Assembly (NCBI GenBank): GCA_964348195.1
Contig: CAYGBX010000003.1
Span: 4,789-68,788, forward strand
Source of the DNA: an uncultured Anaerolineales bacterium
Lineage (GTDB): Bacteria; Chloroflexota; Anaerolineae; UBA7937; JACPPX01
Length of the DNA: 64,000 nucleotides
Reading direction: 5' to 3'
Shown here: positions 5,048-22,837 of the stretch, one piece after another
Layout: the number at the start of each line of letters is the position of its first letter
Numbering within the stretch: position 1 is the stretch's first letter
Position numbers and translations under genes: made by a program
The notes under the pieces: generated by a model
The model's input: the letters and a program-made list of their open reading frames with translations, nothing else
Databases searched by the model: none
Told to the model about the DNA's origin: nothing

Positions 5048-6163
5048 ATGACACCGTTTCCAACTGCCGTCATCGGCAGCCTGCCACGACCGAAGTGGGT
5101 GCTGGATCTGCTGATGCACCATCACGCCGGCCATCTCTCTGGCCGTCAGCTTGACGCCGCGCTTGACCGGGCGGTCGGTTTTGCCATAGGACTACAAGAG
5201 ACCGCTGGCATCGACGTCATCTCGGATGGTGAGTGGCGGCGCATCGGCTATTTCGAGGTGTTCGCGGAGCGGGTCGGAGGTTTTCGAGCAGGTGAATACG
5301 CGACCGCGGCTCTGAGACCCGAAGAGGTGCCCGATGCAGGGCGAGCTCTCCCCCAACAATGGGTTCTCAAGCAGTTCAAGCAGGCCTTGGCGGTCGAACC
5401 CATCAGCTACACACAGCCGATCGCCGCCGACGCCGCTCGCTTCCTGCGAGCCAACACCGAGCGCCAGATCAAGGTCGCCTTGCCCTCACCCCACATGGTG
5501 GGCCGCAGGCTCTGGCATCCTGACTACTCCCGGGATGCCTATCCCGCACGACGGGACCTTGTCGAGGCAGTCATCCCGATCCTGCGATCAGAAGTCGAGG
5601 CGCTCCAATCGACCGGTGTCGATCTTGTCCAGTTCGATGATCCATGGTTCTGTTTCTTTGTCGATCCCAATTACCGGCAGCGCTTCGACGATCCAGAGGC
5701 GGAAATGGAAGAGGCCATTGACGGTCTCAATCGGGTGGTCGAAGGGGTCGACGGGATCAAGACGGCACTGCACGTCTGCCGGGGCAACCGCGAGCGAAGC
5801 CTGTACGCTCGCGGGGATTACGAGCCTGTACTGCCCTTCCTGATGGAGGCAAGGGTCGACCAACTGGCGATGGAGTTCGCGGCGTCGGAGGCGGGGGATA
5901 TCGGGGTTTTCGAAGGGCATTCCTGGGACAAGGAGATCGGGCTCGGCGTGGTCGATGTGCGAAGCCCAGAAGTCGATTCCGAAGAGGTCATCATCGAGCG
6001 GGTCGACCGCGCCCTGAAGCACTTCACGCCGGAGCAGATCACCCTGACCCCCGATTGCGGCTTCGCTCCGAGCAGCACCAATCCTATCCCGTTGAACGAG
6101 GCCTACCTGAAGCTGGAGACCCTGAGCCAAGCCGCCCAGACCTTGCGGAAGCGCTACGCCTAG
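5048..6163 (+). CDS. MetE-like protein (cobalamin-independent methionine synthase catalytic-domain family)
   Basis: 371 aa. N-terminus TAVIGSLPRPKW. Zn-ligand pattern retained: ALHVCRGN (H-x-C), LAMEF (E), TPDCGF (C). The physiological substrate cannot be inferred. Confidence 0.6.
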   Translation: MTPFPTAVIGSLPRPKWVLDLLMHHHAGHLSGRQLDAALDRAVGFAIGLQETAGIDVISDGEWRRIGYFEVFAERVGGFRAGEYATAALRPEEVPDAGRALPQQWVLKQFKQALAVEPISYTQPIAADAARFLRANTERQIKVALPSPHMVGRRLWHPDYSRDAYPARRDLVEAVIPILRSEVEALQSTGVDLVQFDDPWFCFFVDPNYRQRFDDPEAEMEEAIDGLNRVVEGVDGIKTALHVCRGNRERSLYARGDYEPVLPFLMEARVDQLAMEFAASEAGDIGVFEGHSWDKEIGLGVVDVRSPEVDSEEVIIERVDRALKHFTPEQITLTPDCGFAPSSTNPIPLNEAYLKLETLSQAAQTLRKRYA

Positions 6164-6224
6164 GCGGGACATTTCAACTCGACGCCAAGGGACTGGGCGG
6201 CTCCAGCCATGAAAGGAGGTAAGG

Positions 6225-6240
6225 ATCGAATATATTCGAT
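6225..6240. promoter_or_regulatory. 16-bp perfect palindrome ATCGAATATATTCGAT, candidate operator upstream of the ABC operon
   Basis: Perfect inverted repeat in an AT-rich patch. It lies 41 nt upstream of the GTG start of the binding-protein gene (RBS GGGAGGGGAGGAG at 6262-6274). Confidence 0.4.
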
Positions 6241-6280
6241 ACGGTCAACGGCCAAACTTTAGGGAGGGGAGGAGCATAAA

Positions 6281-7720
6281 GTGAGAAAGTATCTTGGGTT
6301 GGCGTATCTCCTGGGTGCTGCCGCTGTCCTGGTCCTGGCCGGATGCGCCACCCCCACCCCCGAAGTGATCGAGGTCCCCGGCGCCGAGCGGGTTGTCGAG
6401 GTCGAGGTCCCCGTCGGCGCCCAACTGGTCACCCTGACCGCGCGCTGCAAGGCCAGCCCCCCCTACGAGAACGGGCGCTGCGACAACCTGGTGGCCGCGA
6501 TAGGCGCCGCCAACACGGCATTGGCCCAGGCGGGCGACGAACGTCGCATCGAAGTCAACCCCATCCAGGATGACGCGGATTGGGGCGACTACAAGACCGA
6601 GTTCGAACTCGCCTCCGAGGCAGGTGAGGCGCCCGACATCATCGTCTCCGGCCACGAGCACATCGGCGACTGGGCCACGGCCGGATATCTCGTCGATGTC
6701 ACGGATCTGCTCGCCGACTACGCCGAATTCGACGACGTGATCGACAGCCTGTGGAGCTCGACCGAGTTGAACGGTCGGCGCTGGGGCGTCCCCCAGGATG
6801 CCGAGGCTCGCCCCATGTACTACAGCAAGCCACTCTTGCGCGAGCTGGGTTGGACCGAGGAAGAGATTGAAAGCCTCGACGAGCGCATCGCCGCCGGCGA
6901 GTTCACCTGGCAAGACATGCTCGACACCGCTGCTGAAGCCGTCGAAAAAGGCATCGTCGAGCCTGGCAACGGCTGGTGGCATCGCCCCGCCAACGGCCCC
7001 GACTTCCTGTATTATTACTACGCCGCCGGGGGAGAGGTTGAGCAGGAGGGATTTGACGGGCTCGTCTTCGACCAGGATGCTGCCCTGAAAGTCTACCAGT
7101 TGCTGTACGATGCCACACAGGTGCGCAGTATCCTGCGGCCCGACCGGCTGGACGGCGACTGGCCCGCCTTCAAGGAGGAAACCGCCCGGTTCGACAAAGT
7201 CATGTTCGTGTTTGAGGGGACATGGCGCTGGGCCTTCTGGCACACCAACATCCTCCAGGAGGAGGGCGGCGAGGACTACCTGTTCGAGAACGTGGGCTTC
7301 GCCCCGATCCCGGCAAATGCTGAGGGCACTGGCCAGGCCATCACGCTGACCCACCCGCTGGTGTATATGATCAGCTCGGAGTCCGAACACCCCGACCTGG
7401 CGCTGCTGCTGATCTCCAAGGCGACGGTCAAGGAGCTCAACACCACCTACGCTGTGGATAGCGGCCACCTGGGCATCCTGAAGTCGCAGTCCGACTACGC
7501 ACCTTACACGAGCGCCAAGTTCTTGAGCGCCACACTGCCGTTGCTCGACTTCACCACCTTCCTGCCCAACAGCCCCTACTGGAGCGCCTACTCGGAAGCC
7601 TACTACCTCGGCATCCAGGCCGTGGAGTCTGGCGATCGGACTCCGGAGGCCGCGCTGGACATCGTTGTGACTCAGCTCCAGAACGAGCTCAGCGACAACG
7701 TGATGATCGTCGGCGGATAA
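6281..7720 (+). CDS. ABC transporter extracellular solute-binding lipoprotein (family 1, sugar-type)
   Basis: Signal peptide plus lipobox VLAGC. 479 aa. Followed by two MalF/MalG-type permeases and a MalK-type ATPase. Confidence 0.85.
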   Translation: MRKYLGLAYLLGAAAVLVLAGCATPTPEVIEVPGAERVVEVEVPVGAQLVTLTARCKASPPYENGRCDNLVAAIGAANTALAQAGDERRIEVNPIQDDADWGDYKTEFELASEAGEAPDIIVSGHEHIGDWATAGYLVDVTDLLADYAEFDDVIDSLWSSTELNGRRWGVPQDAEARPMYYSKPLLRELGWTEEEIESLDERIAAGEFTWQDMLDTAAEAVEKGIVEPGNGWWHRPANGPDFLYYYYAAGGEVEQEGFDGLVFDQDAALKVYQLLYDATQVRSILRPDRLDGDWPAFKEETARFDKVMFVFEGTWRWAFWHTNILQEEGGEDYLFENVGFAPIPANAEGTGQAITLTHPLVYMISSESEHPDLALLLISKATVKELNTTYAVDSGHLGILKSQSDYAPYTSAKFLSATLPLLDFTTFLPNSPYWSAYSEAYYLGIQAVESGDRTPEAALDIVVTQLQNELSDNVMIVGG

Positions 7721-7731
7721 CGACCGTCGGT

Positions 7732-7773
7732 GGCAGGCAGGAGAGGGAGGGCATCTCCTCCCTCTCCCCTGCC
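7732..7773 (+). terminator. Strong GC hairpin after the binding-protein gene (intra-operon attenuator/stabiliser candidate)
   Basis: ggcagg-ca-ggagagggagg / gcatct loop / cctccctctcc-cctgcc. This is 11 + 6 bp of pairing with a 2-nt bulge. No U-tract. Confidence 0.4.
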
Positions 7774-7900
7774 CCGCCGGGCAGGGCGGCATCCCTGCAA
7801 GGACGCGGATCCTCTTTGATGGCGAGGAGTTGCACTCCGAGCCCTAGGTCGGGTGTAGAAACCCCTCCCATCGCGCGTGTAACCAAATGAGGAATCGGAT

Positions 7901-9331
7901 ATGCCGTCAACAAGCCAATCGTTGACTGCCGCACTCCCTGCTTCTCGATCAAGGATATCGGGCCACACGATTGCCATACCCGGCGCGGTGCTGGTCATCA
8001 TCTCGTTTTTCCTGCCGTGGTTTGATTTCATCGCTGGCGCCAAGGCATTAGCAACGCTAAGTGGGTTTCAGGTTGCATCTGGTGTTGCGCTCCTATCGAG
8101 TGAGGGGGCAGAACTCTTCCGCGGCTCCCCAGTTCATTTCCTGGTGCCGATGGTCGGCCTGGTTGTCCTGGTGCTGATCTTTTTTGCCTACCGGCGCGGG
8201 TATGTGACGGAGATGGACGGTTTCGCCACCATCGGCCTGAGCCTGATTGCGCTGCTCACCCTTTGGGGGCGATCCGTGGGAGCGCAGGGTGTTGCTGAGG
8301 AAGAGGGCGTGAACTTGCAGTTTCAATATGGCATGATGGCGGCTTATCTCGCCTTGATCGGGCTGATCGTCGCCGGCGCAATGTATCTGCGCGCCGTCGG
8401 GGAGCGAAAACCCGCCTTCCGCGGCACGTTGGGGGCGTGGGGTTTCATGAGCCCGGCGTCATTTCTCGTGCTGGTGTTCTTCTTTATCCCCGCGATCCTA
8501 CTGTTCATCCTCAGCCTGACCGACCTCTCCAGTTCCAACTTCAGCGATCCCTGGACCTTCATCGGCCTCGGGAACTACAGGAGGATGTTCAGCGACCCGT
8601 TCTTCCCCAAGATATTGGGCAACACCTTTCGCTACGTCATCCTCACGCTGGGCCTCTTCAACGTGGGCCTGGCGCTGGTGCTGGCTCTGTTGACCACCCA
8701 CATCAACCGTCGGGCGGGCTTTTTCTTCCGCCTGCTGTGGCTGCTGCCTCGCATCACACCCTCGGTGGTCTACATTGTGATGTGGCGACGCATCGCCCAA
8801 TCACCTCCCTCCGGCATCGCCAACCAGTTCTTGGGGATGTTCGGCGCTGAAAACCTGCCCTATTGGCTCCCCGAGCAGCCGTGGCTTTTTGTCATCCTGG
8901 TCAACGGCTTCGTCGGCGCCTCCTTCGGCCTGATCATCTTCAGCTCGGCCATCGAAGCCATTCCCAAAGACCTCGTCACAGCGGCGAAAGTGGATGGGGC
9001 CTCGGCATGGCACATCATCCGCGATATCACCCTCCCCCTACTGAAGTGGCCGCTGCTGTTCGTGACCACCTACCAGACCCTCTCGCTGCTCGTGTCCTTT
9101 GAGTACATCCTGCTGCTGACCGAGGGTGGGCCGGGGCTGTTCACCACCGAGGTGTGGGCGCTCACGTCTTACAAGCGGGCCCTGTTCACCTATTTCGGGA
9201 CCAATCAGTGGGGCTACGGTGCGGCCTGGGGGTTTGTCCTGGTGGCCATTGCCATCGGGGCGTCCATCATCTATCTGCGTATCTTTCGTTTCGGCGAGTT
9301 GGTGCAGGAACCCAAAATCGACGTTCTGTAG
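7901..9331 (+). CDS. ABC sugar transporter permease (MalF-like) with ~170-aa extra N-terminal membrane region
   Basis: C-terminal 300 aa have the typical CUT1 permease layout, including the EAA-like loop (AAKVDGASAWHIIRDITLPLL). The N-terminal extension is hydrophobic. Confidence 0.85.
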   Translation: MPSTSQSLTAALPASRSRISGHTIAIPGAVLVIISFFLPWFDFIAGAKALATLSGFQVASGVALLSSEGAELFRGSPVHFLVPMVGLVVLVLIFFAYRRGYVTEMDGFATIGLSLIALLTLWGRSVGAQGVAEEEGVNLQFQYGMMAAYLALIGLIVAGAMYLRAVGERKPAFRGTLGAWGFMSPASFLVLVFFFIPAILLFILSLTDLSSSNFSDPWTFIGLGNYRRMFSDPFFPKILGNTFRYVILTLGLFNVGLALVLALLTTHINRRAGFFFRLLWLLPRITPSVVYIVMWRRIAQSPPSGIANQFLGMFGAENLPYWLPEQPWLFVILVNGFVGASFGLIIFSSAIEAIPKDLVTAAKVDGASAWHIIRDITLPLLKWPLLFVTTYQTLSLLVSFEYILLLTEGGPGLFTTEVWALTSYKRALFTYFGTNQWGYGAAWGFVLVAIAIGASIIYLRIFRFGELVQEPKIDVL

Positions 9332-9343
9332 GCGGGAGCCAAT

Positions 9344-10246
9344 ATGTCAGTAACAACGTTTGAAACCGATCGCGCCTATGGCGCGCGGCGCGTCCTCGGC
9401 CAGACCATTCCCTACGTTCTGCTCATCATCACCATTCTGCCCATCGTGGTCGGCTTTGCCTGGATACTGATCGCCACCTTCTCCGTTCGAACCCACGGTC
9501 TGCTGCCGGTGGATGTCAACGGCAACATCGGCGGGTGGACGCTGCGAAACTGGACTTTCCTGGTGGATCCCCAGATCTGGCAAAGGACCCTGAACTCGTT
9601 CCTGATTGCTATCGGCATGGTCGTCGGGGTTGGATCTGTCTCAACGCTGACCGGCTACGCGCTGGCGCGCATGAACTTCTCTGGGCGCAAGGGCTTCCTG
9701 GGGCTGACCCTGGTGCTGCATGCCTTCCGCCCTGAATTGCTGCTCATCGCCATCTTCCAGGTGCTGCTTTTCGTCGGAGGTCTTCCGCTGATCGGAAACT
9801 GGGTCGGTTTCAACACCGCCGGGGGCGTGGCCCTGGTCATGGTTGCCCTAGAACTGCCGCTTGGGGTGTGGTTGATGAAGGGCTTCTTCGACAACATCCC
9901 CTGGGATATGGAGCGGTCCGCGCTCATTGACGGGGCCTCGCGCTTCCGCGTCTGGTGGGAGATCATCCTCCCCCAGATCCGTCCCGGCCTGGCCGCGCTG
10001 GCCATCTTCAACTTCATCACCGGCTGGAACGCCTGGTTGATCCCCTTCACCTTCACCATCGGCACAACGACATCCAACCTAGCGATCTACATCAACCAAC
10101 TTTCGACCAGCGACATGTCGCCCGTCCACTGGAACCAGATCGCCGCTGTCGGGCTATTTCAACTCGTCCCGGTGATGATCTTCTTCATCTTCACCCAGGA
10201 GATGCTGCTCAACATTTACTCCGGCGGGGTCAAAGGGGGGACGTAA
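9344..10246 (+). CDS. ABC sugar transporter permease (MalG-like)
   Basis: 300 aa, six hydrophobic segments, EAA loop SALIDGASRFRVWWEIILPQIRPG. Confidence 0.9.
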   Translation: MSVTTFETDRAYGARRVLGQTIPYVLLIITILPIVVGFAWILIATFSVRTHGLLPVDVNGNIGGWTLRNWTFLVDPQIWQRTLNSFLIAIGMVVGVGSVSTLTGYALARMNFSGRKGFLGLTLVLHAFRPELLLIAIFQVLLFVGGLPLIGNWVGFNTAGGVALVMVALELPLGVWLMKGFFDNIPWDMERSALIDGASRFRVWWEIILPQIRPGLAALAIFNFITGWNAWLIPFTFTIGTTTSNLAIYINQLSTSDMSPVHWNQIAAVGLFQLVPVMIFFIFTQEMLLNIYSGGVKGGT

Positions 10247-10305: not shown

Positions 10306-11382
10306 ATGAAAGTCGAACTCGAGAATCTCACCAAACGCTGGGGCGATGTGGTGGGGGCTGACTCTATCGACCTGGATATCGAGGATGGCGAATTTGTCGC
10401 CTTCCTGGGCCCCTCCGGCTGTGGCAAAACCACCACCCTGCTCATGGTGGCAGGCATCTACAAGCCGACGGAGGGCACCATCCGCTTCGACGGGCGGGTG
10501 GTCAACCAGGTGGCGCCCAAAGACCGCAACGTCAGCATGGTCTTCCAGAGCTACGCGCTCTATCCTCACATGACGGTCTTCCAGAACATCAGCTACCCCC
10601 TCAAGCTCAAGAGAACTCCGAAAGATGAGATGCGCGAACGGGCCCAGCGGGTGGCGGACATGATGGGCATCGGCCACCTGATGGATCGCAAACCGGCTCA
10701 ACTCTCCGGCGGTCAGCAACAGCGGGTTGCCCTCGGCCGGGCCTTGGTCAAAGAACCTCAGTTGCTGCTGTTTGACGAGCCGCTCTCCAACCTGGACGCC
10801 CGCCTGCGCCTTTCCATGCGGAGCGAGATCAAGCACCTCCAGCTAGATCTGGGTATCACCTCGATCTACGTCACCCACGACCAGGTGGAGGCCATGACCA
10901 TGGCTGACCGCATCGCGGTCATGAATGAGGGCAAAGTGCAGGCATACGCCACCCCCGACGAGTTGTACGACCAGCCGCGCACGCTCTTCATCGCCGGCTT
11001 TGTGGGCAACCCGCCGATGAACTTCCTGGAAGTGGAGGTCACCCGCGAAGATGGCGACTATCACGCCCGTGCGGAGGGGATTGACTTGAGTGTGCCCCCC
11101 GATCGGGGCGAGAAGGCGGCCGGCAAGGGGAAGGTCATCATGGGCATCCGCCCTGATGACGTGACCGTCGCCGACGGGGGCACCAGCGGCAAGATCTACG
11201 TCGTAGAGCCGCTTGGCCGCGATGACCTGCTTGACATACGCATCGGCGAGGCTGGCGTTCACGTGTTGGCCGATCCCACGTTGCGCCTGAAGATGGGCGA
11301 AAGCATCTCGATCAGATTCGACACTAACAAGATCCAGTTCTTCGACCCGGAAACTCAGCGATCACTGCTTTGGTCACAATAG
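10306..11382 (+). CDS. ABC transporter ATP-binding protein (MalK/UgpC-like)
   Basis: ATG at 10306 after GGGGAGAG. Walker A GPSGCGKTT, signature LSGGQQQRV, Walker B LLLFDEPLS, and a C-terminal TOBE-like domain. The longer track ORF from 9955 overlaps the permease gene. Confidence 0.9.
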   Translation: MKVELENLTKRWGDVVGADSIDLDIEDGEFVAFLGPSGCGKTTTLLMVAGIYKPTEGTIRFDGRVVNQVAPKDRNVSMVFQSYALYPHMTVFQNISYPLKLKRTPKDEMRERAQRVADMMGIGHLMDRKPAQLSGGQQQRVALGRALVKEPQLLLFDEPLSNLDARLRLSMRSEIKHLQLDLGITSIYVTHDQVEAMTMADRIAVMNEGKVQAYATPDELYDQPRTLFIAGFVGNPPMNFLEVEVTREDGDYHARAEGIDLSVPPDRGEKAAGKGKVIMGIRPDDVTVADGGTSGKIYVVEPLGRDDLLDIRIGEAGVHVLADPTLRLKMGESISIRFDTNKIQFFDPETQRSLLWSQ

Positions 11383-11389
11383 AGTTGGG

Positions 11390-12553
11390 GTGAGGAGCGT
11401 CGCCACCACGACCTTCACCCTCGCCATGGGCCTCGTCGCCCTGGTCGGCTGCGCTCGGGCCAACACACCTCTATCGCCCACCGCTGAGGTCATCCTCACC
11501 GGTCTGGACAACCCCCGCGGGGTGGCCGTCGGCCCCGCGGGCGAATTGTTAGTGGCCGAAGCTGGCACAGGCTACAGCGCGGTCGATCCCACTCAAATGA
11601 CGGGCAAATTGACCCAATTCACCGACCTCAATGGTGACGGTCATTTCGACGACGCGGGAGAGGTCGAGCGCTGGTTCAGCCATTTTCCGACCTATAACGC
11701 GCAGCATTTCACCCGCTCTGTTCGGGACGAAGTGGGTGGCCCCGGCGATCTCTTGCTGCACCGCGATGGGCGTCTCTTCCTCACGCTGGACGGTGGGTTC
11801 GAAAGGCGGTTCCTCTACGAGATCAGCCCAGATGGGCGGATAGGCCGCAATCTGTACCATCGAGGCGGCAATGTGAACGGCATTGCCTTCGACCCTAGCC
11901 AGGCGCGTATCTACGCGGTTGAGAGTTCCTTCAACCGTCTGATCGAGGTCACTCTCGACGGAGAGCTTCGCGATGTCGTCGAATTTCCCCCCCTGGACAG
12001 TGGCCAGGAGGCGGTCCCAGCTGGTTTGACGCTGGATCCCCAAACCGGTGACGTGCTCGTGGTCCTGTTCTCTGGGTCGCTTGTCGACGACGAGACGGGC
12101 GAGGTCATCCTGTTCATGCCGGGCGACGCCAAAGTGGTGCGCGTGAACCCCGAAACTGGTCAGTTCACCGAAGAAATCACTGGCCTGACGACTGCCATTG
12201 ATCTAGCAGCGGACGCCATGGGCAACCTGTTCGTCGTTGAGATGACATCATCCTTTGTCGAACCTTTCCCCACCGGGTTTGATTTTTTCGACCCCGATGC
12301 CCCCCCACTTCACGGGGGCTACCAGCGCTTCAGCGGGCGGGTTACCCTCTACCCAGCCGATGGTGGCCCGGCCCGGGTGGTGGCGGCGGGGCTCGACACG
12401 CCCACCAACATCACCCTGGGCCCCGACGGCGCGCTCTACATCTCCACGGGACAGGGCACGCCCGGCCGCCCCATTCCTGGCCCGCATGGGCCCACGACCA
12501 TCGTCGGGGAGATTCTGCGAATCACGAACTTCTTGAGAAGCACAGGAGGCTGA
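11390..12553 (+). CDS. Lipoprotein with beta-propeller (NHL/ScyD-ScyE-like) repeats
   Basis: Lipobox LVGC. N-terminal GLDNPRGVAVGPAGELLVAEAGTG and repeated hydrophobic-D/G-rich blades. Starts 8 nt after the ATPase gene. Confidence 0.55.
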   Translation: MRSVATTTFTLAMGLVALVGCARANTPLSPTAEVILTGLDNPRGVAVGPAGELLVAEAGTGYSAVDPTQMTGKLTQFTDLNGDGHFDDAGEVERWFSHFPTYNAQHFTRSVRDEVGGPGDLLLHRDGRLFLTLDGGFERRFLYEISPDGRIGRNLYHRGGNVNGIAFDPSQARIYAVESSFNRLIEVTLDGELRDVVEFPPLDSGQEAVPAGLTLDPQTGDVLVVLFSGSLVDDETGEVILFMPGDAKVVRVNPETGQFTEEITGLTTAIDLAADAMGNLFVVEMTSSFVEPFPTGFDFFDPDAPPLHGGYQRFSGRVTLYPADGGPARVVAAGLDTPTNITLGPDGALYISTGQGTPGRPIPGPHGPTTIVGEILRITNFLRSTGG

Positions 12554-12680: not shown

Positions 12681-13076
12681 ATGGTGCTCAGTTCGGAGGG
12701 AGCCAGTTCTCAGGGAATCGGACAGCAGATGTCCACCATCGATGGCCCGCATCCGATATCCCTATACGACGCCACTGACCAGGGCTCCCGGGACCCCGAC
12801 CACGAGCTAGTCGCTCTCCATGCTCCGATCCTCAACTTTGATACCCGCGAGCCTCTTCTTCCCAAGGCGGTGGGGTATGCCATTTTCGGCAAGAGCGCTG
12901 ACTCCTCTCCGTCTCCGCGTCGAGTCGAACTGAGGCCAGACGGACACCCCGCAGCGACGATGGCCATTGAATATGCCATCTGGTGGGATTGGGATATCGT
13001 CCATCTCTATGACTTCGAGCGCGTCTGGGTGTTCCTCGACGCCGAAGGCACCGTTGTTTGGGCAGAAGCGGGCTAG
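12681..13076 (+). CDS. Hypothetical protein
   Basis: 131-aa ORF with coding-like GC3, and its stop lies 2 nt before the next start. Contains WWDWDIVHLYDFERVWVF (H-x-x-D-F/W-E pattern). No confident family assignment. Confidence 0.4.
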   Translation: MVLSSEGASSQGIGQQMSTIDGPHPISLYDATDQGSRDPDHELVALHAPILNFDTREPLLPKAVGYAIFGKSADSSPSPRRVELRPDGHPAATMAIEYAIWWDWDIVHLYDFERVWVFLDAEGTVVWAEAG

Positions 13077-13078
13077 CA

Positions 13079-14566
13079 ATGAAAACCAATTGGATGCGAG
13101 CGCTTTCCCAGCAGTTCGACCGCGCCTGTCGAGAGGTCGAGGACAAGCCCCTTTTGCTCCTCAGCGATATTGACGGCACGATCATCGACATGCGCTACCT
13201 CATCCGATCCGTGCTCCAATCCTACGACGCCCAACACGACACGAGCTTCTTCGAGAAACTGACCCCTTCGGACATCACGCTCCACGAGAACCACATAGAC
13301 CAGCTGCTTGACGCTCTGTCCATCCCGTCTGAGCGTCGCGAGGACATCATGGCCTGGTATCGCGAGCGGCGGTGGAAGCCAGAAGCCATCCGTGAGATGA
13401 ACCAACCGTTCCCAGGCGCGCTGGAGGTCATTCGCTGGTTTCAGCTCCAGCCCAACACCCACGTGGGCCTGGTCACGGGACGGCCGGAGGCGTTGCGCAA
13501 GGACACCCTGCACAGCTTGAACCAGCTCGGCAAGCCCCAGCGGGTGGCCTTCTCCGACGATCTGCTGTATATGAATCCCGGAGATTGGGAGGAAGAGGTA
13601 CCAGAAGTCAAGGTGGCTGGGCTGCGGCACTTCCGGGAGGCCGGCTACCACGTGTTCGCAGTGATCGACAACGAGCCGGCCAACCTGAAGGCACTCGCCT
13701 CTGCCGACTCCAACAAGGAACTGCTTCTGCTTCACGCCGACACCATCTTTGAAAGCAAGCGGACGCGCCTGCCTCGCGGCGCCGTGCGGGGCAAGGATTA
13801 TCGGTTATCGGAACTCATCCCTGACGAAACGGCACTGCCCTCCAACATTCAGTTGGCCTGGCACGGCGTGAACGACAAGGCCAACCTGCGTCAGTTTCTA
13901 GCCTCCGACGTGCGTTGGGCCGAGATGGACATCTTGCTAGATCCCATTGGACGGGAGGTGATCCTGCGCCATGATTCCTTTGGCGCTGTGCCACCGTCCA
14001 GCGAAGAGCGCTGGCTGACGTTGAGAGAGGCACTGGACGAGATCAAATCTAACGGTCGGGCAGCTAAGCTCGACTTGAAGGCCTCGGGAAGTCTGCTGGA
14101 AATGACGTTGGAGTTGCTGGCCGAGAAAGGCCTCTCCGACTTGGACCTGTGGTTCAACGCCAGCATCGAGAGGCTCATGGAGGCTGGATTCCAGAGGATC
14201 GTAGATGCCCATCCCCAGGCAATCATCCAGTGCCCAATCGACTTTCTCGTCCCGCTGATCCTGGCTACCCCGAACCGGGCGCGCAGCATCCTGAAGATGC
14301 TCGCTGGATGGGGCCTCAATCGTTTCTCCATAAGCTGGCTGGGTCCAGATCTGCCGGGTGTCTTCGACCAAATGGACCGATGGGGATACGAGATGAACAT
14401 CTACAACGTCCCCGATCTGGAGGCCTTCCTGAAGGCCGTTGTGCTGATGCCCCGGTCTGTGACCTCGGACTTCAACTTCCCGCAGTGGTACTACTATGGC
14501 CAGGGCTCTGGGGAGCGCGGTGCACGCCACACCTACGAGATTCGCAAGAGCAAGGAGCGAGGCTGA
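13079..14566 (+). CDS. Fusion protein: N-terminal HAD-like phosphatase domain + C-terminal menorin/FAM151 (DUF2181) PLC-like phosphodiesterase domain
   Basis: N-terminal half: LLSDIDGTIID (motif I), LVTGRP, VIDNEP. C-terminal half: LAWHGVNDKANLRQFL...AEMDILLD...ILRHD...AAKLDLKA...DLWFNASI. This mirrors the WAHAVNS...EADV...MAHP...KLDFK...WLNADI blocks of FAM151/menorin. Confidence 0.6.
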   Translation: MKTNWMRALSQQFDRACREVEDKPLLLLSDIDGTIIDMRYLIRSVLQSYDAQHDTSFFEKLTPSDITLHENHIDQLLDALSIPSERREDIMAWYRERRWKPEAIREMNQPFPGALEVIRWFQLQPNTHVGLVTGRPEALRKDTLHSLNQLGKPQRVAFSDDLLYMNPGDWEEEVPEVKVAGLRHFREAGYHVFAVIDNEPANLKALASADSNKELLLLHADTIFESKRTRLPRGAVRGKDYRLSELIPDETALPSNIQLAWHGVNDKANLRQFLASDVRWAEMDILLDPIGREVILRHDSFGAVPPSSEERWLTLREALDEIKSNGRAAKLDLKASGSLLEMTLELLAEKGLSDLDLWFNASIERLMEAGFQRIVDAHPQAIIQCPIDFLVPLILATPNRARSILKMLAGWGLNRFSISWLGPDLPGVFDQMDRWGYEMNIYNVPDLEAFLKAVVLMPRSVTSDFNFPQWYYYGQGSGERGARHTYEIRKSKERG

Positions 14567-14816: not shown

Positions 14817-16295
14817 ATGAGCGCGAATGACGTGGTTCAGAACTACATCGGCGGGGAGTGGCGGACGTCGAGCGCCGATGAGCAGCTGGAGGTCACCAAC
14901 CCAGCCACCGCAGAGGTGCTCGCTCTCGTCCCACTCTCGCCGCCGGCCGAGGTCGACCAGGCAGCCCAGGCGGCGGCCGCTGCCTTTCCGAGGTGGCGGC
15001 GCACACCAGCCGTCGACCGCGTCCAGCCGCTCTTCAAGCTCAAGGACCTTCTGGAACACCATTTCGAGGACCTGTCCCACACTATCACACTGGAGAACGG
15101 CAAGACCCTGGACGAATCCCGCGGCGAGATGCGCCGCGCCATCGAGAACGTGGAGGTCGCCTGCGGTATCCCCACCTTGATGCAGGGAGACTTTTCGGAA
15201 GACATCGCCCGCGGGATCGACGAGTACATGATCCGCCAGCCGGTCGGGGTCTGCGCCACCATCGCACCCTTTAACTTCCCGGCCATGATCCCCTTCTGGT
15301 TCATGCCCTACGCCCTGGCCTGCGGCAACACCTACATAGTGAAGCCTTCCGAGAGGACGCCCCTTACCATGGAGAAGGTCTTGGGCCTTCTGGAGGAGGC
15401 AGGGTTCCCGAAAGGTGTCGTGAACTCGGTGAACGGCGGGCCCGACACCGTGAACGCCATCCTGGACCACCCCCTGATCGAGGGGATCACGTTCGTGGGA
15501 TCCACGCCGGTGGCCCGACACGTCTACAGCCGTGCGGCCGCCAACGGCAAGCGGGTCCAGGCCCAGGGCGGGGCCAAGAACCCCACCATCGTCCTCCCCG
15601 ACGCCGATCTCGGGACCACGACCCGGATCGTCGCCGACAGCGTCTTCGGCAACGCCGGACAGAGGTGCTTGGCGACCGCACTGACCATCACCGTCGGGGA
15701 AGCGCGTCATGCCTTCGCGGAGGCAATGGCGGGGATCGCCGCCAGCCGCGTGGTTGGATACGGCCTGGAAGAGGGCGTCGAGATGGGGCCGGTCATCACC
15801 CCTCAGAGCAAGGCCCGGATCGAGGGGTTGATCGAAAAGGGTGCAGGTGAAGGCGCGACGCTGCTGGTGGACGGACGCAACACCGTCATCCGAGGCTATG
15901 AAGCTGGCAACTTCATCCGTCCCACCATCCTCGATGGCCTCCCCGCCGAGGGAGAGATCGCCCAGACCGAGATCTTCGGGCCCGTGTTGGGGATGATCCA
16001 TGCCGACACGGTGGACGAGGCCATCGCCTTGGTGAACAGCGGCCGGTACGGCAACATGGCCTGCGTCTTCACCACCAGCGGGGCTGCGGCACGCCAGTTT
16101 CGGTATGAGGCAGAGGCGGGCAACATCGGCATCAACATCGGGGTGGCTGCTCCCATGGCCTTCTTCCCTTTCAGCGGGTGGAAGGACAGCTTCTTCGGGA
16201 CCCTGCATGGGCAGGGGCGCCACGCCGTTGAGTTCTTCACTCAGACGAAGGTCGTGGTCGAGCGCTGGCCCCCCACGCGGAGGCATCCCTCCTAG
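14817..16295 (+). CDS. iolA: Methylmalonate-semialdehyde / malonate-semialdehyde dehydrogenase (CoA-acylating)
   Basis: Start [15 protein letters not shown]. Aldehyde dehydrogenase catalytic region [10 protein letters not shown]. About 490 aa, sitting in the iol context. Confidence 0.9.
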
Positions 16296-16384: not shown

Positions 16385-17323
16385 GTGTCCCGGCTGAAAC
16401 TGGCCAATGCCCCGGTTTCCTGGGGTGTGCTTGAGTTCGAGGGGCTGAAGGGCCGAGCCATCGGATACCAACAAATGCTGGATGAACTCGCCGCAACCGG
16501 CTACGTGGGCACGGAGCTCGGCGATTGGGGATACATGCCCACCCAGCCGGAAACGCTCCAGGCCGAGATGGCTAAGCGCGGTCTCGCCATGGTGGGTGGC
16601 TTCGTGCCCGTCGCGTTGAAGGACCCAAGCGCGCACGTCTCGGGCGAAGCCCGAGCCCTAAAGGTGGCAGGGCTTCTGGCGGGAGTGGCCGAGCTCAGCG
16701 GTCAAGACCAGGAGCCTTTCGTGGTGCTGGCCGACGCCAATGGCACAGACCCCACCCGGATCCAGAACGCCGGGCGGATCACCCCCGAAATGAGTCTCTC
16801 CAACGAAGCGTGGCAGGTCTTTGCCCAGGGTGCAGATCGGATCGCGCTGGCCGTGAGGGATCGGACCGGGCTGCCCACTGTCTTCCATCCTCACTGCGCC
16901 GGGTTCGTGGAAACCCCAGAGGAGATCGCCCGGCTCCTGGACCTCACGGACCCTGCCCTCCTCGGGTTGGCCTTCGATACTGGTCATTTCCTGTACGGCT
17001 CCAGATCCAACGATCCTCAACAGATCCTCGACGGGCTGGACCGCTTCGACGACCGAATCCGGCACCTTCACTTCAAGGACTGCCACGCCGAGGTGGCGAC
17101 TCGATCCCGATCCCAAGGTTGGGACTATTTCCGGGCCGTGCGGCAGGGGCTCTTCTGCGAGCTGGGCCAGGGAGCGGTGGACTTTCCCTCGATCTTGTCC
17201 TGGCTGGACGGTCGCGGCTACGAAGGATGGGCGGTGGTCGAACAGGACGTCCTCCCCGGCATGGGAACACCGAGGGAGAGCGCGGAGCGGAATCGGGCAT
17301 ACCTCAGTTCGATCGGAGTCTAA
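16385..17323 (+). CDS. iolE: Inosose dehydratase-like sugar-phosphate isomerase/epimerase (xylose-isomerase TIM barrel)
   Basis: Blocks [25 protein letters not shown] and [10 protein letters not shown] align with the IolE pattern HHHMG..DTGH..HVHFKD..YKGWIVVEAEQD. Confidence 0.7.
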
Positions 17324-17326
17324 CCC

Positions 17327-18352
17327 ATGATTGCAGATGAGACCTTGACACTCGGCTTGATCGGCGCCGGAGCAATCGGCTCCCTGCATGCCGCGCACCT
17401 AAGTTACCGAATCCCCCGGGCCGACCTCCAGATCCTCGCCGATGTCGTGGAAGAGGCTGCGCAGGGGGTGGCCAAACAGTGCCGCATTCCCGAGACGACC
17501 TCGGACTACCAGCGCATCCTCGAGCGCCCGGACATCGAGGCGGTGGTGATCTGCTCTCCCACCGAAACCCACGCCCGAATCATCGAGGAGGCAGCGGAGG
17601 CCGGAAAACACATCTTCTGCGAGAAGCCCATCGACCTCGATCTGGGCAAGATCGACGGTGCGCTGACTGCCGTTGAGAAGAGTGGTGTGCTCCTACAGGT
17701 CGGTTTCAACCGCCGCTTCGACAGCAATTTCAGGCGCGTTCGAGAGGCCATTCAGAGCGGTGAGATCGGCGAACCCCACCTCCTACACATCATCAGCCGC
17801 GACCCTGCCCCGCCACCTATCGAGTACCTCAAGGTTTCGGGAGACATCTTCGTCGATATGACGATCCACGACTTCGATATGGCCCGCTATCTTATCGGCG
17901 AAGAGGTTGAGGAGATCTACGCCACGGGTGGGGTCAGAATCGACGACGCCATCGCGGAGCTGGGCGATCTCGACACGGTCCTTGTCGTGCTCAAGTTCGC
18001 CGATGGAACCATCGGAACCATCGACAACAGCCGTCAGGCAGTCTACGGCTACGATCAGCGGGTGGAGGTCCTGGGAAGCAAGGGAAGCATCCGCACAGCC
18101 AACAACTTCCCCAACTCGGCTGTCGTCAGTGCCAAGGACCGGATCTACCGGGATCTGCCTCTTCATTTCTTCCTGGAGCGATACGTGGACAGCTACCTGG
18201 AGGAGATGACGCAGTTCGTGGACGCGGTGCTCTCAAGAGGCCCCTCCCCTGTGACGGGCCACGATGGGCGGAGCGCCGTCGTCCTGGGACTCGCCGCCCG
18301 GGCCTCGTACGACCAGAACCGATCCGTCCGGATCACCGAAATCTCGGGCTGA
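17327..18352 (+). CDS. iolG: myo-inositol 2-dehydrogenase (Gfo/Idh/MocA family)
   Basis: N-terminal Rossmann LGLIGAGAIG, EKP motif FCEKPI, GFNRRFD, DMTIHDFDMARYL. Confidence 0.85.
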   Translation: MIADETLTLGLIGAGAIGSLHAAHLSYRIPRADLQILADVVEEAAQGVAKQCRIPETTSDYQRILERPDIEAVVICSPTETHARIIEEAAEAGKHIFCEKPIDLDLGKIDGALTAVEKSGVLLQVGFNRRFDSNFRRVREAIQSGEIGEPHLLHIISRDPAPPPIEYLKVSGDIFVDMTIHDFDMARYLIGEEVEEIYATGGVRIDDAIAELGDLDTVLVVLKFADGTIGTIDNSRQAVYGYDQRVEVLGSKGSIRTANNFPNSAVVSAKDRIYRDLPLHFFLERYVDSYLEEMTQFVDAVLSRGPSPVTGHDGRSAVVLGLAARASYDQNRSVRITEISG

Positions 18353-18369: not shown

Positions 18370-19344
18370 ATGCGCCTTTCTCTCGGAAAGTGGCGCCGGC
18401 TACAGCAGATCGCCAGCTCCGGCGGGACCTTCTCCGTCTTGGCCATCGACCATCGGGGCGCTATGCGCCAGACTCTGCAACCGACCGCTTCCTCCCAGAT
18501 CACGGACAGCGATCTCGCTCAGGTGAAGCAAGACATAGTTCGGGAGTTGGCCCCCTACTGCTCCGCCGTCTTGCTCGATCCGGAGACCGGGGTGGGGCTG
18601 TCTCTGACGAGCGGGGCGCTCCCGGCGAGGACCGGTCTCCTCGTGGCCCTGGACTCGGGCTCCACCGGCGATCCCCAAAGGCCGGAGACCAGCCTTGTGG
18701 AGAATTGGTCGGTGGCCAAAGCCGCGCGCCTCGGCGCGTCCGGCGTGAAGCTCCTGATCTACTACCACCCTAGGGGGTCCGACGCCCCTGCCTTGGAGGA
18801 GCTTGTGGGACACGTGGCGGAGGCCTGCCGTCAGCACGATGTCCCCTTCTTTCTTGAGCCCCTCTCCCGAGATCCTGTGTCGCCAGGCAGAAAGCTTGCC
18901 CCAGAGGAGCGCCGTCGGCTGGGTCTAGAAGCGGCTGCGCGCCTCGTCCCTCTCGGGGTGGACGTGCTGAAGGCGGAGTTCCCCCTCGATGTCGAGCACG
19001 AGCCCGATGAGCATGCCTGGGTGGAAGCTTGCCGGGACCTCACCGACGCGTGCTCCGTGCCATGGAGTCTGCTCTCTGCAGGGGTGGATTTCGAGACTTT
19101 TGTGCGCCAGGCCCGTATCGCCTGCGAAGCCGGAGCCAGTGGAGTCATCGCTGGACGCGCGGTCTGGCGCGAGGCTGCCACGACCCACTCCGAGGCACGA
19201 CGCCGATTCCTGGCGGGGGTGGTGCGAGAGCGGATGACCCGTCTAGCCAGATTGTGTGAGAGGACGGGCCGCCCCTTCACCCAGGTATACCAGCCACCTG
19301 AGCTCCCCACTGGCTGGCATGCGGAGTATCCCGAGGCCCTGTAG
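18370..19344 (+). CDS. Class I aldolase of the LacD/tagatose-bisphosphate aldolase family (possible DKGP-aldolase role in inositol pathway)
   Basis: FSVLAIDHRG near the N-terminus, GVKLLIYY, VDVLKAEFP. 324 aa, immediately after iolG. Confidence 0.65.
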   Translation: MRLSLGKWRRLQQIASSGGTFSVLAIDHRGAMRQTLQPTASSQITDSDLAQVKQDIVRELAPYCSAVLLDPETGVGLSLTSGALPARTGLLVALDSGSTGDPQRPETSLVENWSVAKAARLGASGVKLLIYYHPRGSDAPALEELVGHVAEACRQHDVPFFLEPLSRDPVSPGRKLAPEERRRLGLEAAARLVPLGVDVLKAEFPLDVEHEPDEHAWVEACRDLTDACSVPWSLLSAGVDFETFVRQARIACEAGASGVIAGRAVWREAATTHSEARRRFLAGVVRERMTRLARLCERTGRPFTQVYQPPELPTGWHAEYPEAL

Positions 19345-19968: not shown

Positions 19969-20068
19969 AGCACGGCTCCTGTGGAAGGTCGCGGGATTAT
20001 AGCATCAGTTCACGAGACACCGCACCCCGGCTCCGACCTTAAAATGGTCCGCGATTCGCCCCATTGTT

Positions 20069-20098
20069 TTGTATCGCCATCTCGGATTATGCTATAAT
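20069..20098 (+). promoter_or_regulatory. Candidate sigma-70 promoter for the nuclease-dnaB-dnaD-dnaC cluster
   Basis: TTGTAT (20069-74), 18-nt spacer, extended -10 TGcTATAAT (20090-98), in an AT-rich intergenic patch. Confidence 0.4.
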
Positions 20099-20159
20099 GC
20101 TCATCACCCCCGAACAAGACCTATTCACCGCCCGCATCATCGGGAAGGAGCCCACAGGA

Positions 20160-20657
20160 ATGATCCGCGTCGTGGTGGACAGCATCAAGGTAAGCCTGAT
20201 CTCCCAGCACCGCCTGGTGGTACTCAAAGAGGAGGACGGAGATCGGTTCCTTCCCATCTGGATCGGCCCCTTCGAGGCCGATGCCATCACCATCGGGATG
20301 CAGTCAATCGAGATGTCGCGTCCTTTGACCCACGATCTGATCAATGAGGTGGTCGGGGGATTGAATGGCGCCATCTCCCACATCTACGTCAACGATCTGC
20401 AGGAAGACACGTTTTTCGCCCAGATCGTCATAGACCTCAACGGCAGCCGACTGGAGATCGACTCTCGGCCCTCGGATGCCATTGCCGTAGCGGTGCGGGT
20501 TGATGTGCCCATCTTTGTGTCCGAGGGGGTCTTGGATCAGGCCGGTATTCTCCCCTCAAAAGAAGAGGAAGCCCTCACCGAGGAAGAGAAGGCGAAGCTC
20601 GCCCCCTTCACTGACCTAGTGGAGAGCTTGGATCTGGACAGCCTCGGCGAGGAGTAG
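20160..20657 (+). CDS. Bifunctional nuclease family protein (DUF151)
   Basis: ATG at 20160 after GGGAAGGAG. Blocks LPIWIGPFEADAI, RPLTHDL and DSRPSDAIAVAVR are typical of DUF151. Confidence 0.8.
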   Translation: MIRVVVDSIKVSLISQHRLVVLKEEDGDRFLPIWIGPFEADAITIGMQSIEMSRPLTHDLINEVVGGLNGAISHIYVNDLQEDTFFAQIVIDLNGSRLEIDSRPSDAIAVAVRVDVPIFVSEGVLDQAGILPSKEEEALTEEEKAKLAPFTDLVESLDLDSLGEE

Positions 20658-20659
20658 CC

Positions 20660-22009
20660 GTGGCTGGCGGCCCTCTGCCTCCCCAGAACATCGAAGCGGA
20701 ACAATCGGTTCTGGGGAGTCTTCTTTTGGACACGGACGCGGTCCTCCAGGTCTCCCCGTTTCTTTTGCCCCAGGACTTCTACCAGGAGTCCCACCGCCAG
20801 ATCTACCAAGCCATCCTCGATCTTCATGAGAAGCGCCAGCCCTCCGATCTCGTTACCCTGACCGACGAGCTGGAGCGCCGGGATCAGCTGGACGCAGTCG
20901 GCGGAGCCGCCTACCTTGCCTCCCTCACCAACGCGGTCCCAAGCCCGGTCCATGTGGAGCACTACGGCCACATCGTGGAACGGATCGCTGTCCTGCGACG
21001 GCTCATCGCGGCTTCAGGCGAGATCGCGGGGATGGCCTACGAAGAATCGGAGGATGTGGACCAGATCATCGACCACGCCGAGGAGATCATCTTCGGGGTT
21101 GCCCAGCGGAGGCTCGATCGGGATCTCATTCCCCTGGCCAAACACCTGGAGGAGTACTACGACTACATCGAGCAGGTCTCCGGCGAAAAGGGCGAGATCA
21201 TGGGGCTGCCCACCGGCTTCGACGATCTCGACAAGCTCCTTGCGGGGCTCCAAAGGTCTGATCTGATCATCGTGGCCGGACGGCCCGGCATGGGAAAGAC
21301 TAGCCTGGCGCTCAGCATCGCTTTCTCCGTCGCCCAGGAGCGGAACGCCCGAATCGCCCTGTTCAGCCTGGAGATGCCGTCCCAGCAACTGGCTGCCCGA
21401 CTGATCTGCGCCGCTACCGACCGAAATTCTCGCGTCGACTCGCTGAAGCTCCGTTCGGGGAAGCTCACCGACCACCAGCTCAGCGAGGTGATGCGCGCGA
21501 TGGGGGATCTTTCCCAGTACGAGATCTACATCGACGACTCGGCGACGCTCACACCTATGGAGCTCAGAGCCAAGGCTCGGAGGCTCCATGCCGAGAAGCC
21601 GCTGGATCTCGTCATCGTGGACTACCTTCAGCTCATGCGGGCTGGCATCCGGGCCGAGAACCGCGTGCGTGAGGTGTCCCATATCTCCCAGCAGCTCAAG
21701 GCGCTGGCGAGGGAGCTCCGCGTCCCGGTTCTGGCGTGCTCCCAGCTCTCGCGCGCGGTGGAGCTGCGGCACGACAAGCGGCCGGTACTCTCCGACCTGC
21801 GTGAGAGCGGCAGTATCGAACAGGATGCAGACGTGGTGATCTTCATCTACCGCGAGGTGGTAGGCGATGAGGAAGAGGCCGAACGGGCCAACGTGGCCGA
21901 CGTGATCGTCGCAAAGCACCGGAACGGTCCTACCGGACAGGTCCAGTTGGTGTTCCTAAAGGACCGCGCTCAGTTCGTGAGCGCCGAGCTCCGAAGGGTG
22001 GCAGCTTGA
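20660..22009 (+). CDS. dnaB: Replicative DNA helicase
   Basis: PPQNIEAEQSVLGSLL N-terminus, Walker A GRPGMGKTS, IVDYLQLM, SQLSR and ESGSIEQDAD motifs. Confidence 0.95.
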   Translation: MAGGPLPPQNIEAEQSVLGSLLLDTDAVLQVSPFLLPQDFYQESHRQIYQAILDLHEKRQPSDLVTLTDELERRDQLDAVGGAAYLASLTNAVPSPVHVEHYGHIVERIAVLRRLIAASGEIAGMAYEESEDVDQIIDHAEEIIFGVAQRRLDRDLIPLAKHLEEYYDYIEQVSGEKGEIMGLPTGFDDLDKLLAGLQRSDLIIVAGRPGMGKTSLALSIAFSVAQERNARIALFSLEMPSQQLAARLICAATDRNSRVDSLKLRSGKLTDHQLSEVMRAMGDLSQYEIYIDDSATLTPMELRAKARRLHAEKPLDLVIVDYLQLMRAGIRAENRVREVSHISQQLKALARELRVPVLACSQLSRAVELRHDKRPVLSDLRESGSIEQDADVVIFIYREVVGDEEEAERANVADVIVAKHRNGPTGQVQLVFLKDRAQFVSAELRRVAA

Positions 22010-22746: not shown

Positions 22747-22837
22747 CCCGCCCGACGCAGAGGTCTGCGCCATCTGCGGCGGTCTCGGCTGGATCCGCCA
22801 GGACCTCGAACCCGACGACCCCGGCTTCGGGAGGCTG

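Follow-up and report, generated by a model that had tools for sequence, protein, structure and literature searches.

Animal proteins of the Menorin/FAM151 family, which matter for dendrite patterning in C. elegans and for photoreceptor survival in the mouse, have been placed in the PLC-like phosphodiesterase superfamily; their active site has been described, their nearest characterised relatives by HHpred are the spider PLD/SMase D toxins, and their substrates are unknown (Findlay et al. 2020; PMC6965129). Among the GDPDs, glycerophosphoinositol is split in two ways, GDE1 producing inositol and glycerol phosphate and GDE3 producing inositol phosphate and glycerol (PMC3725514). In the agrocinopine acc operon, an ABC importer (AccA-E) is combined with the phosphodiesterase AccF and with the phosphatase AccG, which acts on the released phosphomonoester (PMC4526662). 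Di-myo-inositol phosphate (DIP), mannosyl-DIP and diglycerol phosphate belong to one recognised group of solutes (PMC1224877). Microbes of the deep sea and of sediments have IPCT/DIPPS genes and DIP-type solutes, and transcription of the synthesis genes has been observed in archaea of the cold deep sea (PMC7265257). No enzyme degrading DIP-type solutes is described in the literature accessible for search. Here we analyse a gene from an uncultured Anaerolineales bacterium (Chloroflexota), located in a stretch of 64,000 nucleotides of contig CAYGBX010000003.1 (positions 4,789 to 68,788; hereafter the window), whose product joins an N-terminal HAD phosphatase domain to a C-terminal PLC-like phosphodiesterase domain. 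Both domains of this fusion protein are very probably catalytic in the window copy. The reading that we favour, to which we give about an even chance, is a cytoplasmic bifunctional hydrolase that would act on an inositol phosphodiester of the DIP or glycerophosphoinositol type and yield an alcohol, myo-inositol and phosphate.

The fusion gene is intact and occupies an open reading frame (ORF) at 13058/13079..14566 of the plus strand, which encodes 495 aa plus a stop codon. Its homologs begin at the ATG at 13079 (MKTNWM...), which we thus accept as the start. The coordinates assigned in an earlier note on this DNA are therefore right, and the motifs quoted there are all found in the same order, namely DIDGT (aa 30-34), VTGR (132-135) and DNE (197-199) on the HAD side, followed by AWHGVN (aa 260-265), AEMDI (281-285), LRHD (296-299), KLDLK (330-334) and LWFNASI (357-363) on the barrel side. 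The presence of all these motifs far exceeds chance. An AlphaFold2 model built from an alignment of 38 sequences shows a confident and rigid two-domain arrangement (pLDDT 86, pTM 0.83), with disorder only in the last ~25 residues, and the protein is read as cytoplasmic because the sequence lacks an N-terminal hydrophobic signal. NCBIfam contains no model for the whole fusion protein, PDB sequence searches with the whole protein (phmmer) and with a profile of the C-terminal domain (hmmsearch) returned only noise and matched no solved structure, and an exact-sequence look-up of the 495-aa protein gave no record. A public copy of the locus does exist (L113 in our collection of loci; GCA_012974985.1, JABAOH010166306.1); it has a small scaffold gap at 6475-6478, corresponding to window positions 13204-13245, as a result of which its gene call is only 405 aa long and lacks the HAD DxD motif that is intact in the window copy.

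The N-terminal half carries the complete set of HAD motifs. Motif I reads D30-x-D32-G-T34 (nt 13166-13180) and thus has both the nucleophile Asp and the general acid/base Asp two residues downstream, whereas motifs II, III and IV are represented by T133, K178 and D197-N198-E199, respectively. Residues D30, D32, G33, G134-R135-P136, K178 and D197-N198-E199-P200 are invariant in the 38-sequence alignment. Four Pfam HAD families match aa 27-210 with E 2e-4 to 3e-3, all of them with sub-threshold scores (Hydrolase, 22.4 against a cutoff of 26.4; Acid_phosphat_B, 21.2 against 27; HAD, 21.6 against 27; HAD_2, 18 against 23.8), and Acid_phosphat_B is matched by 37 of the 38 homologs at E<=0.01; judging from these sequence matches, this half represents a divergent HAD subfamily. 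In the model, residues 25-220 form a Rossmannoid core, and a helical insert at aa 38-123, placed between motifs I and II, is a C1 cap. Within the HAD superfamily, C1 caps accompany small-molecule phosphomonoester substrates. In a Foldseek search of the PDB, the N-terminal half matched capped HAD phosphatases (E 1e-7 to 1e-4), the best HAD-attributable entry being the mannitol-1-phosphate dehydrogenase/phosphatase MtlD (7ocp, E 3.4e-7), followed by beta-phosphoglucomutase-like proteins and the BT2127 pyrophosphatase.

The C-terminal half is a PLC-like phosphodiesterase domain that Pfam files under Menorin/DUF2181. It matches the Menorin profile PF10223 at aa 262-363 with 27.6 bits against a gathering cutoff of 25 bits (E 2.5e-6), the alignment covering profile positions 9-112 of 242 and thus only part of the model, and the remainder of the barrel is visible only in the structure model. 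The same profile is matched by 28 of the 38 homologs at E<=0.01 (best 1.9e-8). The active-site pattern of Menorin/FAM151, with two His residues, an acidic metal site and a Lys, is present in the key barrel residues H262, E282/D284, R297-H298-D299, K330/D332/K334 and W358/N360, and the set that is invariant in the alignment comprises W261-H262-G263, N265, E282, D284, R297-H298-D299, K330, D332, K334, W358 and N360. Strands and helices alternate as in a TIM barrel over residues ~255-460 of the model, for which Foldseek identified the GDPDs 3qvq, 3ks6, 2otd, 1zcc and 1vd6 in the PDB (E down to 2.4e-7, target TM 0.56-0.66). An hhalign comparison of this domain with canonical GDPDs that adjoin the fusion gene in other loci gave 88.8% probability and E 2.5e-6 over 202 columns; it placed H262 opposite the H-R-G His of the GDPDs, E282/D284 opposite their E-x-D metal ligands and D332/K334 opposite D-x-K, with R297/H298 within one column of the second catalytic His. 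The Arg of H-R-G is missing in the fusion, where the motif reads W-H262-G-V-N, and the GDPD profile PF03009 does not match the fusion protein at E<=1. Thus, the kinship with GDPDs is visible only through the fold and through HMM-HMM comparison. Eukaryotic FAM151 proteins were sought in two ways: an exhaustive profile search with the C-terminal domain listed 150 of its 367 clusters, all of the bacterial fusion or stand-alone type, and a stepping-stone search from a stand-alone bacterial C-terminal domain retrieved only bacterial proteins.

Both domain assignments had been proposed in the earlier note and are supported here, the HAD domain by the motifs, the sub-threshold Pfam matches and the Acid_phosphat_B matches of the homologs, and the Menorin/DUF2181 domain by a PF10223 score above the cutoff and by the matches of most tested homologs; the C-terminal domain also models as a PLC-like/GDPD TIM barrel according to AlphaFold2, Foldseek and hhalign. 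The accompanying statement that the family has no established bacterial function still holds. The relatives of the fusion are annotated only generically, under such database names as hypothetical, 'HAD family hydrolase', 'DUF2181 domain-containing' and 'FAM151A/B family protein'.

The fusion is widespread. A word-indexed search identified more than 1,355 relatives, the 120 best of which are full length without exception (~495 aa) and share 53-92% identity with the window protein, and the exhaustive profile search among 1.84 billion representatives produced 367 clusters (50% identity) at E<=1e-3 and 146 at <=1e-30. The family is compact, and most members are fusions of 470-500 aa, many others being fragments. 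Fusion genes were found in GTDB genomes of Chloroflexota (Anaerolineales, Promineifilaceae), Nitrospirales, Gemmatimonadota and Thermodesulfobacteriota, as well as in Phycisphaerales, Acidimicrobiia, one Clostridiaceae metagenome-assembled genome (MAG) and one 'archaeon' MAG. The earlier note had allowed for a fusion restricted to one genome and with disrupted catalytic residues; instead, more than 1,300 relatives are distributed over at least eight phyla, and the residues are intact in the window copy and in ~90% or more of 111 members. Among these 111 fusion genes, the HAD residues are nearly always retained (D30 in 107/108, D32 in 108/108, T133 in 106/110, K178 in 111/111, and D197/N198/E199 in 110-111/111), and the phosphodiesterase residues are retained in 88-96% (H262 in 105, E282 in 107, D284 in 104, H298 in 97, D332 in 107 and K334 in 105). 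Several phosphodiesterase residues are gone in minority lineages (L021, L069, L109, L110, L111). A paired substitution, D284H with H298R, is common to the divergent fusion genes L088, L096 and L106 and could represent a re-wired active site rather than decay. In a Nitrospirales locus (L028, 10067-11343), the fusion is split into three ORFs by two stop codons and has lost its phosphodiesterase residues, while the adjoining genes for a methyltransferase and for myo-inositol-1-phosphate synthase (MIPS) are intact; this copy is a probable pseudogene. Genuine stand-alone C-terminal domains also exist (P0133, P0179, P0294, P0198), some of them without catalytic residues, and a split version, with a separate HAD gene beside the stand-alone domain, was looked for and not found. 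No paper on the fusion, its breadth or its association with inositol was found in a literature search.

Two fused and conserved hydrolytic sites suggest sequential action, X-O-P-O-Y -> X-OH + Y-O-P -> Y-OH + Pi, where Pi is inorganic phosphate, and we consider it fairly likely that the two domains act in this way on one substrate. PLC-like enzymes such as PI-PLC, GDPD and SMase D leave the phosphate on whichever moiety contributes a vicinal hydroxyl. The barrel, with H262, H298, the metal site E282/D284/D332 and K334, is predicted to cut a phosphodiester in which a polyol bearing an adjacent hydroxyl carries the phosphate, and this polyol would most likely be myo-inositol. Such a cleavage would yield an alcohol and an inositol monophosphate, as in the regiochemistry of GDE3, and the HAD domain (nucleophile D30, acid/base D32, T133, K178, D197/E199) would then remove the phosphate to give myo-inositol and Pi. 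The same chemistry might instead be directed at lipids, in which case the barrel would cut phosphatidylinositol, inositol-phosphoceramide or a lyso-form and deliver inositol phosphate to the HAD domain. PI-PLC has the same fold and chemistry, and the relation of FAM151/Menorin to the spider toxins points in the same direction (PMC6965129). However, the fusion protein shows neither a signal peptide nor a transmembrane segment, nor any element that would obviously bind membranes, its gene is transcribed together with those of an importer for soluble solutes, and the best structural matches of the protein are soluble GDPDs, which together make action on lipids improbable.

The proposal that the substrate contains inositol, which we hold to be slightly more probable than its opposite, comes from the gene neighbourhoods. 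We collected 112 loci (labelled L plus a number) and scored neighbours by tblastn, which was preferred over longest-ORF calls because the latter picked antisense ORFs in high-GC loci; dereplication at 80% identity with at least 5 kb of flank left 49 loci. Inositol genes (iol catabolism, MIPS or IPCT/DIPPS-like) occur within 10 kb of the fusion in 14 of them (29%), with iol genes in 10, MIPS in five and IPCT/DIPPS-like genes in two. A CUT1 importer is found in 15 of the 49, a canonical GDPD in nine, usually immediately upstream, a ScyD/ScyE-family propeller in nine, and PhoU or PHO4 in four. The context of the fusion gene is not random, and the rate of inositol genes appears to be far above that expected for a random gene.

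Within the Chloroflexota, the conserved order is LacI - substrate-binding protein - permease - permease - MalK - propeller - (orf131 and/or GDPD) - fusion - iol genes, and fuller iol sets with iolB, an iolC candidate, iolD, iolA, iolE and iolG are present in L005, L006 and L034. One stand-alone C-terminal domain from Chloroflexi is also encoded in this importer operon, where a sulfatase gene and a MetE-like gene precede it. MetE-like genes recur by the fusion or the stand-alone domain (L010, L033, L048, L063, L114), as do sulfatase-family genes (L001, L033, L114), and the imported compound may carry methyl or sulfate decorations.

Outside the Chloroflexota, the association with inositol takes other forms. 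In six Nitrospirales loci, the fusion gene is convergent with genes for an S-adenosylmethionine (SAM)-dependent methyltransferase and MIPS, followed by a distant CUT1 transporter. This pair of genes, located at 11521-13494 in L013 and at the equivalent positions in L014, L018, L023 and L026, could direct the synthesis of a methylated inositol derivative. MIPS lies directly upstream of the fusion on the same strand in L072 and L074, and an IPCT/DIPPS-like gene adjoins the fusion in L082. The same-strand order in L071 is fusion - orf93 - MIPS - IPCT/DIPPS-like, whereas in L070 the fusion is followed first by a histidine phosphatase, then by a 764-aa IPCT/DIPPS-like triple fusion and finally by MIPS. 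This 764-aa protein (6039-8333, minus strand) is composed of cytidylyltransferase, CDP-alcohol transferase and HAD_2 domains, the last of which is a candidate for its own DIPP phosphatase; a specific relationship between this HAD domain and that of the fusion was considered and rejected, since the two are unrelated beyond motif I. For the three IPCT/DIPPS-like proteins (L070, L071, L082), the best match is the curated model of bifunctional IPCT/DIPPS, NF041135, which they cover over almost its whole length (E 1e-46 to 1e-64); their scores are well below its strict cutoff, so that they are only distant relatives, and their product may be DIP, glycerophosphoinositol or some other diester derived from CDP-inositol. 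These biosynthetic links are independent of the Chloroflexota operon, and the link to inositol, which recurs in independent arrangements in other phyla, is stronger than that drawn in the earlier note. Because inositol oxidation, MIPS and inositol-phosphodiester synthase neighbours recur, an inositol phosphodiester is the most economical substrate class. Such compounds plausibly occur in the habitats of these bacteria, given the transcription of DIP-synthesis genes in deep-sea archaea.

The biosynthetic neighbours also bear on a different role, in which the protein would be mainly an inositol-monophosphate or DIPP/GPIP phosphatase, its HAD domain dephosphorylating the MIPS product or the phosphorylated IPCT/DIPPS product and its barrel mostly binding the inositol phosphate or diester. 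MIPS and IPCT/DIPPS-like genes do adjoin the fusion, no other phosphatase is in view in L071 and L082, the HAD residues are stricter than those of the phosphodiesterase, and some lineages have a degenerate phosphodiesterase site. We nevertheless regard this role as quite unlikely, since most of the family shows no variation in the catalytic residues of the phosphodiesterase, the IPCT/DIPPS protein of L070 has a HAD domain of its own, the context in the window and in the Chloroflexota is that of import and catabolism, and the barrel is retained in this operon even where it stands alone and has no HAD partner.

Another alternative is a general scavenger of phosphodiesters with no special tie to inositol, which would supply the cell with phosphorus or carbon by releasing Pi and two alcohols from assorted glycerophospho- or sugar phosphodiesters, for example fragments of teichoic acids or of phospholipid head groups, or compounds resembling agrocinopine. 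The acc operon is a precedent for this role, the sugar-type transporter resembles MalEFG, GDPDs are co-located in nine loci, and inositol genes are absent from over half of the loci. PhoU, PHO4 or Na/Pi-PhoU genes adjoin the fusion in L016, L019, L032 and L051; these neighbours fit the release of Pi by the fusion. Against such a scavenger speak the ~29% of loci that have inositol genes within 10 kb in several unrelated arrangements and phyla, apparently far above the random rate, and we consider it unlikely, though less so than the biosynthetic phosphatase.

For the inositol phosphodiester hydrolase, the neighbourhoods suggest two physiological settings. In the window, the upstream CUT1 ABC transporter would import the substrate, and the freed inositol would be oxidised via the downstream IolG, IolE-like protein, IolA and aldolase. 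In other phyla, where neighbours make inositol phosphates or phosphodiesters, the enzyme would turn the solute over. The co-located canonical GDPD may have the opposite regiochemistry or act on a second diester bond.

Several observations weigh against this reading. No inositol, GDPD or importer neighbour is present in 26 of the 49 loci, which implies that the inositol specificity may be lineage-specific or wrong. The inositol cluster of the window is itself partial, as searches for iolB, iolC and iolD within the window found none. The MalEFG-like transporter would suit the import of a glycoside, and this reading does not account for the MetE-like, sulfatase, propeller and orf131 genes, which hint that the substrate carries further decorations. 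Where the operon also encodes a canonical GDPD, as in nine loci, this enzyme would by itself suffice to release inositol from glycerophosphoinositol. The scores of the IPCT/DIPPS-like neighbours are far under the curated cutoff, and the HAD domain at those loci could instead be a biosynthetic DIPP phosphatase. Finally, constraint is stronger on the HAD half than on the barrel, and ~10% of members keep the HAD residues and have lost the phosphodiesterase residues, so that the HAD half can evidently work alone; a phosphatase-centred role, on inositol phosphate or DIPP, therefore has to be kept in view. With regard to the substrate, the choice of any single named compound would be doubtful. The broadest version of the proposal, which we consider unlikely and put forward as speculation, is that the fusion family is the missing hydrolase for DIP, glycerophosphoinositol and mannosyl-DIP, serving turnover in producers and being fed by an importer in sediment Chloroflexota, and that inositol phosphodiesters, cut so as to release inositol phosphate, would also represent the ancestral substrate class of the whole Menorin/FAM151 family.

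Genes around the fusion in the window are listed in Table 1. From the MetE-like gene through the aldolase gene, and including the fusion, all lie on one strand; a promoter and terminator scan of this operon gave the same counts as shuffled sequence. The fusion had been placed by the earlier note between a sugar ABC transporter and iolA-iolE-iolG. The transporter is indeed upstream and the iol side downstream, although the propeller and a truncated orf131 intervene before the fusion, and the iol identities are confirmed by NCBIfam cutoffs for IolG and the CoA-acylating methylmalonate-semialdehyde dehydrogenase (MMSDH), whereas the IolE-like protein remains below its cutoff.

Table 1. The fusion gene, its two domains and the surrounding same-strand genes (window coordinates)
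Feature	Position	Strand	Evidence
MetE-like (Meth_synt_2) protein	5048..6163	+	Pfam PF01717, E 2e-33
CUT1-type ABC substrate-binding protein	6281..7720	+	Pfam SBP_bac_1, SBP_bac_8; weakly MalE/GacH-like, not UgpB-like
ABC permease 1 (MalF/UgpA-like)	7901..9331	+	Pfam BPD_transp_1; NCBIfam
ABC permease 2 (MalG/UgpE-like)	9344..10246	+	Pfam BPD_transp_1; NCBIfam
ABC ATPase (MalK/UgpC-like)	10306..11382	+	ABC_tran, OB_MalK; UgpC subfamily 416 bits, just under the 432-bit cutoff
ScyD/ScyE-family beta-propeller	11390..12553	+	Pfam SGL/NHL; NCBIfam NF033206, 104.7 bits against an 80-bit cutoff
orf131, truncated member of a ~200-aa family	12681..13076	+	no Pfam or NCBIfam match
HAD-Menorin-like fusion gene	13079..14566	+	ORF; full-length homologs of 53-92% identity; AlphaFold2 model
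N-terminal C1-capped HAD domain, aa 1-234 (phosphatase ~20-230)	13079..13780	+	Pfam, Foldseek, conserved residues
C-terminal PLC-like (Menorin/DUF2181, GDPD-fold) domain, aa 250-472	13826..14494	+	Pfam, Foldseek, hhalign, conserved residues
IolA-type CoA-acylating MMSDH	14817..16295	+	Aldedh; TIGR01722, 539 bits against a 448.5-bit subfamily cutoff
IolE-like sugar-phosphate isomerase/dehydratase TIM barrel	16385..17323	+	AP_endonuc_2; TIGR04379 iolE, 169 bits, below the 290-bit cutoff
IolG, inositol 2-dehydrogenase	17327..18352	+	TIGR04380, 455 bits against a 355-bit equivalog cutoff
Class I (LacD/DeoC-type) aldolase	18370..19344	+	Pfam DeoC; NF009498, 239 bits against a 184-bit cutoff

The start of the ABC ATPase gene is that of the public gene call in L113. 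A label of Ugp-type glycerophosphodiester uptake was rejected for the transporter, since the binding protein and the permeases match MalE/MalF/MalG better than UgpB/A/E and the ATPase falls under the UgpC cutoff. The opposite strand encodes a GlpD-type glycerol-3-phosphate dehydrogenase (2268-3917, minus strand) about 1 kb ahead of the operon; as support for a glycerophospho-substrate it was given little weight and set aside, because it is not conserved near the fusion elsewhere. The propeller carries an LVGC lipobox and is probably a lipoprotein. The stop codon of orf131 is located 2 nt before the ATG of the fusion. This ORF is C-terminally truncated, its homologs (182-227 aa) running ~100 aa further and sharing the invariant motif IEYAIWW.WDI.HLY..E..W, and the family adjoins the fusion in the Chloroflexota loci L007-L012 and L039. 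In L011 (13830-15425), a full-length relative of orf131 and a canonical GDPD form a single ORF of 531 aa, which ties the orf131 family to phosphodiesterases. The LacD/DeoC-type aldolase is a possible IolJ substitute and co-occurs with IolC/IolD candidates in L058 and L062. At the edge of the window (9-560, plus strand), a fragment of a thiamine pyrophosphate-dependent (TPP) enzyme shares 34% identity with an IolD candidate. The iol genes are closely followed by a replication module (20064-24046, plus strand) and then by a MerR-family regulator with B12-binding domains (24845-26161, minus strand). The module contains a bifunctional-nuclease-domain protein, a DnaB helicase, a DnaB_2/DnaD-like protein and an IstB/DnaC-like ATPase with apparently two AAA modules.

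Both domain superfamilies and the two-step logic of diesterase and phosphatase are already known, and the fusion offers a tractable entry to the substrate of Menorin/FAM151 and to the catabolism of inositol-phosphodiester solutes. It is a soluble and easily expressed bacterial relative whose phosphatase and neighbourhood point to inositol phosphodiesters, and it thus provides a testable substrate hypothesis for the animal proteins. DIP-type solutes are made by hyperthermophiles and, as their genes suggest, by deep-sea archaea; if the proposal is true, an importer, a hydrolase and the iol pathway in sediment Chloroflexota would constitute a new route of carbon and phosphorus cross-feeding. An assay of a single member could allow the re-annotation of hundreds of entries that are now named 'hypothetical', 'HAD family hydrolase' or 'DUF2181'.

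Compared with the known systems, the C-terminal domain resembles animal Menorin and FAM151A/B in its match to PF10223, in its PLC-like TIM barrel and in the pattern of His, E-x-D, His-Asp and D-x-K, whereas the fusion is bacterial, cytoplasmic and joined to a HAD domain, and the kinship is remote. The GDPDs (UgpQ/GlpQ; 3qvq, 1zcc, 1vd6; GDE1/GDE3) are the best structural matches, have their catalytic residues in register and are often encoded by the adjacent gene, and GDE3 demonstrates that an inositol-phosphate-releasing regiochemistry exists in their superfamily. The fusion differs from them by the absence of a Pfam GDPD match and of a sequence-level PDB match and by H-G-V-N in place of H-R-G, and it is probably not redundant with GDPD, since a true GDPD co-exists with it. 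MtlD of Acinetobacter baumannii (7ocp) likewise has an N-terminal HAD phosphatase, which is fused to the enzyme making its polyol-phosphate substrate; the partner in that case is a dehydrogenase and the pathway is biosynthetic, and since the alignment returned by Foldseek runs across both domains at a high root-mean-square deviation, the likeness applies at the level of the HAD domain only. IPCT/DIPPS and inositol monophosphatase act on the same class of molecules, inositol phosphodiesters and inositol phosphates, and IPCT/DIPPS-like genes are neighbours of the fusion in L070, L071 and L082; IPCT/DIPPS builds the diester, whereas the fusion is predicted to break it, and there is no homology between them. 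The agrocinopine acc operon differs in having two separate enzymes, a sugar phosphodiester opine as substrate, an importer of another family and no link to inositol. It nevertheless follows the same logic as that proposed for the fusion from gene order and conserved sites, with import followed by a cytoplasmic diesterase and then by a phosphatase.

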